A stretch of DNA of 64,000 nucleotides. Source: a bacterium (GTDB taxonomy: Bacteria; Vulcanimicrobiota; Xenobia; Xenobiales; Xenobiaceae). This document shows, piece after piece, positions 1-18,961 of the stretch; the stretch's first letter is position 1; each line of letters opens with the position of its first letter. A model generated the notes under the pieces. It had not been told where the DNA came from. It saw nothing but the letters and a program-made list of their open reading frames with translations, and did not search any database. The stretch spans positions 2,062 through 66,061 of the forward strand of contig JALHDH010000004.1 of NCBI GenBank assembly GCA_022839105.1, given 5' to 3'. Position numbers and translations under genes: made by a program.

Positions 1-430
1 GTCGGCCCAATCCTGGGCATCGACGCCCCCCGCCCCGGCGTGGACGGTGAGAATCGCCGTCGAACGATCGTACTCCCCGCTCATCAGGGCGCTGGTCTCG
101 GCCCTCTCGAGCTCAGCCCCAAGAGCCTGATGGGCCCGCTCGACCTCGGCGATCTCCTCGGGACTCTCGTCCGAAGCCATCTCCAGGTAGAGCTCGAACT
201 CCTCCAGCCCGACCGAGAGGCGGTCCCACTGGTCCACCACGCTTCGGTGCAGGTTCAGCTCTTCATTCAGCTTGCGGGCCAGGTCCGGATCGGTCCACAC
301 ATCGCCCGCAGCAAAACGGGACTCGATCTCCTCGATCTTGGAACGACTTGAATCCAGGTCAAAGATAGTCGCGCATCCGGTCGACCCGGGCGCGAATCTC
401 GGTCAGGCGGTCGGCGAATTGAGCCAGCAT
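1..430 (-). CDS. prfB: Peptide chain release factor 2 (5' part, runs off the window), with programmed +1 frameshift at CTT-TGA-C (358-364)
   Basis: ATG at 430 gives MLAQFADRLTEIRARVDRMRDYL, then CTT TGA C. The +1 frame continues DLDSSRSKIEEIE...LMSGEYDRSTAILTVHAGAGGVDAQDWAD, which matches the RF2 N-terminal region. Lies downstream of secA, a common synteny. Confidence 0.95.
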
Positions 431-14349: not shown

Positions 14350-14982
14350 TCAGGAATCCAGGGCCCGGACGAAGGGATTGCTCCTCTTCTCCTCTCCGAC
14401 GGTCGTGGCCGGACCGTGGCCGGGATGGAGGATCGTGTCGTCCGGCAGACTGTAGATCCGATTGCGGATCGAGCGCTGGAGCTGCCGGAAATCCCCTCCG
14501 GGCAGGTCGGTCCGGCCCACCGAACCGGCGAAGATCGTGTCGCCGACAAAGGCGTTCCCTCCGCTGAGGAGGACGACTCCACCGGGTGAGTGCCCGGGCG
14601 TATGCAAGACCTGGAAGACCAGGCTGCCCGCCCGGAAATCCGTTCCTTCCCGCAGTTCTCCATCCACCACGGGAATGGGACCGGGTTCCAGCCCGAAGAG
14701 CATGGCCTGCTGAGGCGCCGCCTGGATCAGCTCCAGATCCCCCGGGTGGGCATGGAGGGGAACGCCCAAGGCCTCCTTCACCTCCTGCGCGCGCATCACA
14801 TGATCCACATGACCGTGGGTCAGGAGCAAGGCCCGGATCGTCACCCCTTCGGTGCGGATCAGGTCCAGCAGTCTTCCGCTCTCATCCCCGGGATCGATCA
14901 GGACCCCATCCCGGGTCTCTTCATCGGCCACCAGGTAGCAGTTCATCTGGAAGGCCCCGACAGGGCAGGTGCGAATCAACAT
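14350..14982 (-). CDS. MBL-fold metallo-hydrolase (YcbL/glyoxalase II-like)
   Basis: THGHVDH motif, HTPGHSPG, GDTIFAGSVGRTDLPGG, PGHGPATT. Confidence 0.92.
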   Translation of the reverse strand: MLIRTCPVGAFQMNCYLVADEETRDGVLIDPGDESGRLLDLIRTEGVTIRALLLTHGHVDHVMRAQEVKEALGVPLHAHPGDLELIQAAPQQAMLFGLEPGPIPVVDGELREGTDFRAGSLVFQVLHTPGHSPGGVVLLSGGNAFVGDTIFAGSVGRTDLPGGDFRQLQRSIRNRIYSLPDDTILHPGHGPATTVGEEKRSNPFVRALDS

Positions 14983-17292: not shown

Positions 17293-17889
17293 TTGAGCGC
17301 ACCGGAGCCTACCCCGCAGAGCCTCCTGGCCCGGCTCCAACCCGTCCTCGAAGAGGAGGGATTGGAGATCCAGGTCGTGGACCTTCGCGATGGCCTGGTC
17401 CATCTGAGAGGGCGGCGGGTCTCCCCGGGAGTGCCCATGGCCTTCATGGTCCGGGCCCTGGAAGGGACCTTCCGCCGCTATCTCTCCGGCTTCAAAGGGG
17501 TGGTCCTCGACGAATGGGAGGATCTCGAGGAGCGCAAGACCCCGCCCCGGGCCCTCGGGCCGATCATGCGAGGACTTCCCGGCCTGGATCTGACCGGGAC
17601 CGATCGCAGGGAGGCGGCCTCGGCCCTGGACATCTTCGCCGGGATGTTGCGCCGGCAGGGCGCTCGCCGCGCGCGCCTGCTGGGCGTCGGGCAGGGGGGG
17701 GCCGAGCAGGCCCTCGAGAAATGGCTGGCGATCCACCGTGAAGCGGGAGACCTCGGGCACCCCGAAGCCGGGCATCGGGGCCGGTGGATCCTGCATCTCG
17801 GGCAGGCCTGTGAAGATCCCGGGACCTGCGGCAGCGACGAATCGGGCGAGACCCTTCCCGCCGGAATCCTGCTGGCCGGTCAGCCCTGA
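17293..17889 (+). CDS. NifU C-terminal-like domain protein lacking the CxxC motif
   Basis: LQPVLEEEGLEIQVVDLRDGLVHLRG follows the NifU pattern (RPxLxxDGGDVELVDVxDGxVxVRL); abuts the upstream gene. Confidence 0.5.
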   Translation: MSAPEPTPQSLLARLQPVLEEEGLEIQVVDLRDGLVHLRGRRVSPGVPMAFMVRALEGTFRRYLSGFKGVVLDEWEDLEERKTPPRALGPIMRGLPGLDLTGTDRREAASALDIFAGMLRRQGARRARLLGVGQGGAEQALEKWLAIHREAGDLGHPEAGHRGRWILHLGQACEDPGTCGSDESGETLPAGILLAGQP

Positions 17890-18452
17890 TCCGACAGGAG
17901 CGGTGAGGGTCGGGAGCGCGGACGACGCTTCCGCGGACGCCCCTGGCGCTGAGCCTCGGGAAGCCTTCCCGAAAGACCCTCGCGGATCAAGCCGAGAAGA
18001 CCGAGGGCCCTCTCGTCCGCCCCGGAAGATTCCATCCGGTCCAGGTAGTCCGCCATCGCGGGAACCAGACGGAGCTGCACCGCGCTGAGCTGGTCGGCCG
18101 CCAGCATGGAGCGCGATTTCCAGCTTCTGCTGCGCAGATCCCAGAACAGGTCGCTCGGGTCGTAGTAGTAGGGAGCCGGCAGGCCATTGAGCTTCTCCCG
18201 CAGGGAAGGGACCGAGAAACCCTGCTCTTCGATCATGCCCTTGATGAAGGCCATCTCCACCAGGTCCGACCGGGTATAGCGTCGCGAACGTCCTTCATGG
18301 GGATATTCCGGGTGGAGCAGGCCCTGGCTCTCCCAGTACTGGATCACGCGGGTGCTCACCTCCAAGGCCCTGGCCGCATCGGCCTGGCTGAGGTACAGGA
18401 CCATCCCGTCAAAGAGTTCGAGCTGGGCGTCCGGGCGAACTCGCGGTATCAC
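17880..18452 (-). CDS. MerR-family HTH transcriptional regulator (start uncertain: GTG 18452 or ATG 18404)
   Basis: YLSQADAARALEVSTRVIQYWESQGLLHP...RRYTRSDL is a MerR winged-HTH pattern. Confidence 0.85.
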   Translation of the reverse strand: MIPRVRPDAQLELFDGMVLYLSQADAARALEVSTRVIQYWESQGLLHPEYPHEGRSRRYTRSDLVEMAFIKGMIEEQGFSVPSLREKLNGLPAPYYYDPSDLFWDLRSRSWKSRSMLAADQLSAVQLRLVPAMADYLDRMESSGADERALGLLGLIREGLSGRLPEAQRQGRPRKRRPRSRPSPLLSDQG

Positions 18453-18487
18453 GCCCAAGGGATTCGTCAGGCCCGGGTCTTGCTCCC

Positions 18488-18558
18488 TTCTCCACACCTG
18501 CTGTCCACATATGCACAAGACTTGTGCATATGTGGACAAGCTGTGTGAATGTGGACAC
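18488..18558. promoter_or_regulatory. DnaA-box-like array containing a perfect 18-bp inverted repeat (18502-18519 / 18521-18538)
   Basis: TGTCCACATATGCACAAG-A-CTTGTGCATATGTGGACA. Nonamers TTCTCCACA, CTGTCCACA, ATATGCACA and inverted TGTGCATAT, TGTGGACAA, TGTGGACAC resemble TT(A/G)TNCACA. Confidence 0.65.
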
Positions 18559-18567
18559 AGAAAGTTG

Positions 18568-18595
18568 TTGACATGGCCCATGCAGGGTGTATAAT
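18568..18595 (+). promoter_or_regulatory. Consensus sigma70 promoter TTGACA-N16-TATAAT
   Basis: TTGACA at 18568-18573 and TATAAT at 18590-18595. Confidence 0.85.
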
Positions 18596-18601
18596 GAAAT
18601 C

Positions 18602-18737
18602 ACCTCGAGCATCGAGCCGGACGGCTCTGCAAGAGGAGCGCCGCGAAGGGTTCCCTGGCCCGAAGCGTCGCAGTGGTTCCTCCTATATCCCTTCATGTGC
18701 CCCCTCCGACTCACAATCCGGGGGGCCTTCTTTTTTC
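18602..18737 (+). ncRNA. Candidate ~135-nt small RNA of unrecognised family
   Basis: Bounded by the consensus promoter and a hairpin plus U-tract; no credible SD-ATG ORF; several stems, with G-U pairs on the plus strand. Confidence 0.5.
18699..18737 (+). terminator. Intrinsic terminator, possibly bidirectional
   Basis: GCCCCCTCCG...CGGGGGGC hairpin followed by CTTCTTTTTT. Confidence 0.7.
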
Positions 18738-18916: not shown

Positions 18917-18961
18917 GATCCGGTTTAAAACAGTGCACTGATCCGGCCTAAAATGGTGCAC
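18917..18961. repeat. Tandem 22-bp direct repeat (18/22 identical, 23-bp period) with CAGTGCACTG palindrome at 18931-18940
   Basis: GATCCGGTTTAAAACAGTGCAC versus GATCCGGCCTAAAATGGTGCAC. Confidence 0.75.

Follow-up and report, generated by a model that had tools for sequence, protein, structure and literature searches.

In the pairs oxyR-oxyS, gcvA-gcvB and sgrR-sgrS, the genes of a small RNA (sRNA) and of a transcription factor are arranged back-to-back. LhrC of Listeria monocytogenes, an sRNA of ~100 nt under a dedicated stress regulator, has UCCC in a loop, in a single-stranded segment and in the loop of its terminator, and recognises its targets at their G-rich Shine-Dalgarno (SD) region (PMC4132741). 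RsaE acts via C-rich motifs (PMC6158497), and RsaE/RoxS of the Firmicutes, conserved over a wide clade, possesses several unpaired motifs of this kind that pair with the SD sequences of many mRNAs, including those of housekeeping genes (PMC6158497, PMC5419742). The locus described here, an intergenic unit of ~135 nt (about nt 18602–18736, plus strand), was located in a 64-kb window, the whole stretch of DNA analysed, which corresponds to contig C60:2062–66061 of a 4.24-Mb metagenome-assembled genome (MAG, designated G000) with 68% G+C; all coordinates refer to this window unless a contig is named. Judged from comparison of genomes, it is very likely a small regulatory RNA gene undescribed so far, and a probability of about 0.6 is assigned to the whole reading, that of a base-pairing sRNA with an anti-SD seed under the control of a neighbouring MerR-like regulator.

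Homologues were collected from families f1 to f3 of one order within UBP9, a basal, anaerobic class of Candidatus Eremiobacterota, also called WPS-2 (10.1101/534180). When GTDB genomes were scanned for the exact pattern, the core motif appeared in UBP9 MAGs, a goat-rumen MAG and digester MAGs, and BLASTN recovered the unit in the three other genomes of the same genus as well as in two additional genera. A search of the class with a covariance model based on six sequences gave exactly one match per genome in 16 of the 19 genomes of family f1, which encompass five genera and 38% to 62% G+C; the remaining loci (f2, f3 and metagenome) were found with the MerR-like protein as the anchor together with a motif search. 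The resulting 58 loci represented 43 distinct RNAs of 95 to 146 nt, present as a single copy at the same position throughout, and all of them possessed TTGAC[ATG], a spacer of 16–18 bp, TAnnnT, the invariant sequence GUUCCUCC and a terminator. In the alignment, conservation began upstream of the promoter and ended exactly at the U-tract, everything further downstream being unalignable. Thus, the orphan, self-contained small RNA proposed in a preliminary description, made from the letters of the window alone, was borne out by the comparative evidence, each of the 58 loci having, at the level of sequence, its own promoter and terminator.

The 8-mer GUUCCUCC (nt 18676–18683), mostly found as UGGUUCCUCC, was invariant in 43 of 43 distinct RNAs of the order, and its mean predicted unpaired probability was 0.64 versus 0.39 for the rest of the RNA, the 8-mer having the higher value in 41 of the 43. 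The pyrimidine tract noted beforehand as resembling an anti-SD sequence was therefore not only present but also included an invariant 8-mer predicted to be unpaired. Since the sole element invariant across the structural subtypes is an unpaired stretch of 8–10 nt complementary to the SD sequence, it has the signature of a base-pairing seed. Additional C/U-rich motifs were observed in hairpin loops, namely UUCCCUGG in the RNA of the window, AUCCCG in genus g4 and GAGUCCUC in g7 and g9, the RNA of g9 also having GUUCCUC a second time. An invariant, exposed SD-complementary stretch located between the last hairpin and the terminator and accompanied by C/U-rich loops matches the design of LhrC and RsaE/RoxS, and on this ground the RNA is read as a putative trans-acting repressor of translation initiation. 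However, it shared no sequence or model similarity with LhrC, which is multicopy in Listeria and controlled by a two-component system, whereas the present RNA is single-copy, lies divergent to a MerR-family gene and occurs in a different, uncultured phylum; its seed is longer and invariant (UGGUUCCUCC), and its terminator loop contains CUCACA instead of UCCC. Likewise, the Rfam model of RsaE gave no match, the motif is UUCCUCC rather than CCCC, and the 5′ domain is replaced between families.

Compensatory changes among relatives, one of the checks named in the preliminary description, were found in three subtypes (A3, A6 and A7). Within A3, to which the RNA of the window belongs, 8 of the 30 proposed pairs changed on both sides and still remained paired, a level reached by 0 of 500 shuffles, and this support collapsed in slid registers; the corresponding numbers of compensatory pairs were 9 in A6 (g8 type) and 4 in A7 (f2 type), and the terminator stems also covaried in other subtypes. 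The middle hairpin accounted for 5 changes on both sides among its 10 pairs, and helices 1 to 3 of the 5′ domain of A3 received modest support from RNAalifold and pair counts. The 5′ hairpins varied by lineage, other genera having a different hairpin with compensatory changes of its own. Over the order as a whole, this domain was remade six times or more, with covariation persisting within the subtypes. In every subtype the closing stem ended 1–4 nt before (U)GGUUCCUCC and the terminator followed 10–30 nt later. As to the long stem proposed earlier, the hairpin with the symmetric GAA/GAA loop was present and supported by covariation, but its GAGGAG/UUCCUC extension was not conserved, the relatives having AAAGGU; a stem of this kind sequestering the seed was thus rejected.

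Both the perfect promoter and the unit of ~135 nt closed by a hairpin and a U-tract had been recognised correctly from the letters (Table 1), and transcription is predicted to start at about A18602. At 68% G+C the chance number of perfect promoters, estimated from base composition, was ~0.03. Perfect TTGACA-16..18-TATAAT promoters numbered eight in the whole assembly, six preceding tRNA genes (on contigs C105, C252, C266, C280, C286 and C311), one preceding an mRNA and one at the sRNA locus. Because six of the eight drive tRNA genes, the consensus promoter appears to be in use by the organism and to mark strongly expressed RNA genes. Several promoters with one mismatch likewise preceded tRNA genes, and one of these, on the minus strand of C46 at about nt 14750, was located ~250 nt upstream of rplJ. 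The terminator hairpin had G+C-rich arms (GCCCCCUCCG and CGGGGGGC) and was overlooked by a simple terminator scan because its loop exceeds the rule of that scan. Its apical CUCACA, a possible second contact site, was unchanged across five genera of family f1.

Table 1 Features of the sRNA locus and its divergent neighbour, numbered along the window
Feature	Position (nt)	Strand	Remarks
Divergent MerR-family regulator gene	17880–18452	-	~190 aa; GTG start at 18452–18450; VIPRVRPDAQLELF...; Pfam MerR_1, E 1e-15
Perfect 37-bp palindrome TGTCCACATATGCACAAG-AC-TTGTGCATATGTGGACA	18502–18538		Candidate operator; core CACAAGACTTGTG at 18514–18526
Third half-site TGTGGACA	18550–18557		Between the palindrome and the -35 hexamer
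Sigma-70 promoter TTGACA-16-TATAAT	18568–18595	+	12/12 match; -35 at 18568–18573, -10 at 18590–18595
5′ hairpin domain	18603–18636	+	Outer CCUC/GAGG and inner GAGCC/GGCUC pairs; minimum-free-energy fold
Middle hairpin CGCCGC-GAA-GGGU[UCCCUG]GCCC-GAA-GCGUCG	18638–18671	+	Symmetric internal loop; UCCC-containing apical loop
Predicted single-stranded seed UGGUUCCUCCUAUAUCCCUUC	18674–18694	+	Pyrimidine tract; UUCCUCCUAUAUCCCUUC at 18677–18694
Intrinsic terminator	18699–18736	+	Stem 18699–18726, -13.0 kcal/mol; apical loop CUCACAA, then UUCUUUUUU

Searches against known families agreed with the earlier statement that the RNA belongs to none of them. With the window and eight homologous loci as queries, no family of Rfam 15 matched at the gathering score, and no model of the signal recognition particle (SRP) RNA, 6S, tmRNA, RNase P, a riboswitch or a known sRNA was among the matches. 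At E ≤ 10 nothing relevant fell on the RNA, which was touched only by two weak matches (E 6–7), one of them on the minus strand; matches down to E 0.002 were to microRNA-precursor models and lay on the upstream palindrome (nt 18486–18554). ARAGORN found neither a tRNA nor a tmRNA in the window. A coding frame was excluded because close relatives differ by indels of 1–2 nt inside the unit, and a small open reading frame (ORF) was rejected for the same reason and because the AUG at nt 18696 is not conserved. The sRNA unit is a new family of a known kind, homologous to none of the systems compared with it and contained in no library.

The divergent gene to the left encoded a MerR-like protein for which no NCBIfam equivalog reached the cut-off. 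An AlphaFold2 model of this protein (predicted local distance difference test score 84) matched in the PDB only MerR-family winged helix-turn-helix domains with a long helix, and a beta-hairpin, APYYYDPxDxFWD..WKSR, was conserved. Only 55 relatives were found among 5.8 billion proteins, and the homologues bear Eremiobacterota names. In the phylum sample the gene occurred as one copy in 37 of the order's 40 genomes (f1, f2 and f3), being absent from the other orders of the class and present in only 2 other genomes of the 401 sampled. A unit homologous to the sRNA lay on the opposite strand upstream of every homologue of the order, including the f2, f3 and metagenome loci; the two homologues outside the class had no such RNA upstream. 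Both the sRNA and the MerR gene were missing from three f1 genomes (G006, G007 and G017), one of which is 96% complete. Regulator and sRNA were accordingly adjoining, divergent and jointly present or absent in the order, in which the phylum scan had found the gene in 37 genomes, adjacency being based on the coordinates of the covariance-model matches in 16 genomes and on motif search for the f2 and f3 loci. On the far side of the MerR gene, an ORF of 198 aa without a Pfam match (nt 17293–17889, plus strand) converged on it, and synteny extends to this side, as an f2 genome (L068) has a similar ORF in the corresponding position. To the right, an M14-like gene converged on the sRNA, and the non-conserved spacer between this gene and the terminator contained two tandem 22-nt direct repeats, GATCCGGTTTAAAACAGTGCAC and GATCCGGCCTAAAATGGTGCAC (nt 18917–18961), within which fell a second match of the promoter scan (TTAAAA-18-TAAAAT).

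The arrangement resembles that of oxyR-oxyS, gcvA-gcvB and sgrR-sgrS in that regulator and sRNA are divergent, are inherited or lost together and have between them a conserved element, here a candidate operator. It differs in that the regulator belongs to the MerR family and the candidate operator lies upstream of a full consensus promoter with a spacer of 16–18 bp. As judged from conservation, the candidate control element is the upstream inverted repeat CACAW-N3-WTGTG and not the dyad in the promoter spacer. This repeat, which forms the core of the palindrome in the window, was present in almost all of the 58 loci, being weakened to TGTA/TGTT in a few loci of g4 and g7. Measured from the -35 hexamer, its start lay at -32/-34, -54 or -75, positions that are spaced in ~21-bp steps. 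For most lineages this places the centre at about -62, -83 or -103 with respect to the predicted start; the copies in g4, at about -97 and -118, fell outside this series. As each step equals two helical turns, a face-of-helix relation with RNA polymerase is suggested. In the assembly of the window, the pattern occurred at the sRNA locus and at one further site (G000:C207:421) on an AT-rich contig of 1.2 kb. Several more contigs that are short and AT-rich (C53, C61, C149, C168, C223 and C231) look foreign to a genome of 68% G+C and may represent contamination of the bin. A repeat found essentially once in this genome and inherited jointly with the MerR gene favours a dedicated local regulator.

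The preliminary description had envisaged MerR control through a CATGG-C-CCATG dyad within the promoter spacer. This form of the proposal was not sustained, since no genera other than g1 and g3 had the dyad and the spacer measured 16–18 bp in all loci, unlike the classic MerR layout of a 19–20-bp spacer with a dyad operator between the hexamers. With a spacer of normal length and the candidate operator upstream, the DNA-untwisting mechanism of classic MerR proteins does not fit. The link to a MerR-family regulator itself is nevertheless made plausible by the divergent, co-inherited gene and the conserved upstream repeat. A separate motif, CGAAC-N4-GT(T/C)(G/T)G (e.g. AAATCGAACAGTGTTTGGATTGAC), adjoined the -35 hexamer in g8 and g9 (L042, L043, L048, L051, L060, L063, L064, L066, L070 and L071) and was found elsewhere in the intergenic region, beyond the boxes, in g7 and f2 (L037, L038 and L041). 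It is similar, save for 1–2 mismatches, to CGAAC-N4-GTTCG, the LexA (Cheo) box of Gram-positive bacteria, and is absent from the genome of the window.

In the mechanism proposed, the sRNA would be transcribed from the consensus-strength sigma-70 promoter and terminated at the intrinsic terminator, and its exposed tract, mimicking the anti-SD sequence, would pair with ribosome-binding sites of the GGAGGAAC(C) type on a subset of mRNAs. Such pairing would block binding of the 30S subunit and/or alter mRNA stability; the exposed UUCCUCC stretch probably acts by blocking the ribosome-binding sites. The UCCC-type motifs in the hairpin loops could provide extra contacts, as in RsaE/RoxS and LhrC, and the MerR-family protein would be the dedicated regulator that binds the CACAW-N3-WTGTG repeat.

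Several target leads were obtained in the genome of the window, where rplJ (L10) ranked third of 5588 crude ORF starts, its predicted duplex comprising 12 contiguous pairs and a further 6 (-31.9 kcal/mol), and rpsO (S15) had a rank equivalent to seventh; dnaA, hslV and murI also possessed GGAGGAACC at the right spacing. The ribosome-binding site of rplJ retained GGAGGAAC in 4 of 8 genera (g1, f2, g7 and g9), that of dnaA in three (g1, g3 and G008, with a seed pairing of 10–11 bp, 11 bp in G008) and that of rpsO in two only (g1 and g3). With conservation of GGAGGAAC only partial, no target can be called, and rplJ, rpsO and dnaA, like any resemblance to the housekeeping targets of RsaE/RoxS, are to be taken only as leads predicted from complementarity. 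The exact word GGATATAGGAG was found at six sites, each of them antisense and within a coding region. A pairing between UCCCUUC and the GAAGGGA located in the 5′ untranslated region of the MerR mRNA was not supported, as the sRNA side is changed in G001 without compensation.

Some of the results weigh against a base-pairing sRNA under MerR control. Among rplJ, dnaA and rpsO, none was a target conserved across the whole order, and in three relatives the 10-mer GGAGGAACCA was not enriched over the control count and no orthologous gene recurred. The single-sequence fold was no more stable than shuffled sequence (z = -0.39); this value being uninformative, the structure is supported by genome comparison and not by folding energy. 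On the side of the regulator, no sensor domain was recognised in the MerR-like protein by NCBIfam, PDB sequence search or Foldseek, a consensus promoter can do without an activator, and for a repressor a position of the operator at -62 to -103 would be unusual.

That no universal mRNA target was found would also be compatible with a conserved RNA acting by binding or sequestering a protein (candidates being an RNA chaperone, a Csr-like regulator, RNA polymerase or the ribosome) or by other means not involving ribosome-binding sites, the invariant tract then being a recognition site for the protein. Strong conservation of the 5′ domains within each family, the invariance of the CUCACA terminator loop in f1 and a promoter of the class used by stable RNAs such as tRNAs are in line with this possibility, which we nonetheless regard as distinctly unlikely: the only feature invariant across subtypes is the unpaired SD-complementary stretch, replacement of the 5′ domains between families would not be easily tolerated by a protein scaffold, no 6S or SRP model matched, and the GGA motifs are too few for a Csr-type sponge, which was rejected. 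A cis-acting leader or attenuator of the downstream gene is very improbable. In g2, g3, g4 and g5 (L017, L019, L020, L026 and L028) a gene for a PiT-family inorganic phosphate transporter does lie downstream in the same orientation, at a distance of 140–450 nt, but in the window and in the f2, f3 and g9 loci checked the next gene is the convergent M14-like gene, so that neither the gene nor its orientation is constant between lineages as a leader would require; moreover, conservation stops at a strong terminator, the PiT gene of G004 has an extended -10 promoter-like site of its own, and no riboswitch model matched. That no gene exists at all, the promoter-like site and hairpin being chance features of an intergenic region, agrees with the fold z-score but is contradicted by the comparative data, namely 43 distinct homologues at a fixed syntenic position over 38–62% G+C with sharp boundaries, compensatory stem changes and an invariant 8-mer. 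Such a coincidence is scarcely conceivable, and on these comparative grounds a real RNA gene is in all probability present.

Control of the promoter by DnaA, likewise raised in the preliminary description, instead of or together with the MerR-like protein, with the sRNA reporting replication status, is suggested by the half-site nonamers of the upstream array, which resemble DnaA boxes (TTATNCACA-like). Perfect boxes were observed in f3 (two TTATCCACA per locus), in G008 (three TTATGCACA) and in other g1 genomes (TGTGGATAA), and the genome of the window had TGTGGACAA, matching at 8 of 9 positions; three of the 36 copies of TGTCCACA in this genome are located at the sRNA locus. Similar boxes, CCGTCCACA, TGTCCACAG, TGTGGATAA, TTTTCCACA and TTATCCACA, with the pattern TT[AGT]TCCACA, are densely clustered in the region upstream of its own dnaA (G000:C277:1600–1760), which probably represents either the promoter of dnaA or a portion of the origin in this MAG. 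The MerR-sRNA module shares a contig with dnaA, at a distance of 29–104 kb, in five genomes from four genera (G019:C192, G023:C1, G024:C7, G028:C1 and G011:C7); as four of these genomes are of 6.8–9.5 Mb, a conserved origin-proximal position is suggested. In addition, the dnaA ribosome-binding site is itself complementary to the seed in g1, g3 and G008. A comparable situation is known from Bacillus subtilis, in which intergenic clusters of DnaA boxes outside oriC regulate transcription (PMC2533591), with several box-like nonamers clustered upstream of a promoter and proximity to the origin in several genomes as the shared features; here, however, the boxes are predicted from sequence, and the core has the symmetry of an inverted repeat and is linked to the gene of a local regulator. 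This core, a symmetric 13-bp repeat extended to a perfect 37-bp palindrome in the window, is typical of a dimeric regulator; it is essentially limited to one site in the genome, is accompanied by the MerR gene in every case, and in some loci, e.g. L042 (TTGACACAA-CTT-TTGTGTCAA), is present without a good DnaA box. In the lineages with the best boxes (f2 and f3), dnaA also has no sequence complementary to the seed. An interpretation of the locus as the origin (oriC) was rejected, because dnaA is on contig C277 and the window has no GC-skew switch. DnaA control is therefore considered unlikely, though still to be reckoned with. A more far-reaching version, in which the sRNA is an arm of a circuit coupling replication initiation to ribosome synthesis, with DnaA, alone or with the MerR-like protein, binding the array and the sRNA pairing with the ribosome-binding sites of dnaA, rplJ and rpsO, is highly doubtful; we know of no replication-translation loop described to act through a base-pairing sRNA.

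An anti-SD sRNA paired with a MerR-like regulator would be of some consequence for UBP9, an uncultured group from digesters, rumen and sediments, for which, to our knowledge and without a literature search, no regulatory RNA has been described. Its order-wide presence, together with a promoter equal in strength to the promoters of tRNA genes, suggests that it is likely one of the main post-transcriptional regulators of the group. The finding offers Rfam a family to model and, in the regulator and the sRNA, a pair open to testing in a laboratory host. In this family, a seed of 8–10 nt has survived while the remainder of the RNA was rebuilt several times, and if the leads to rplJ, rpsO and dnaA are true, the sRNA would bear on the control of growth.

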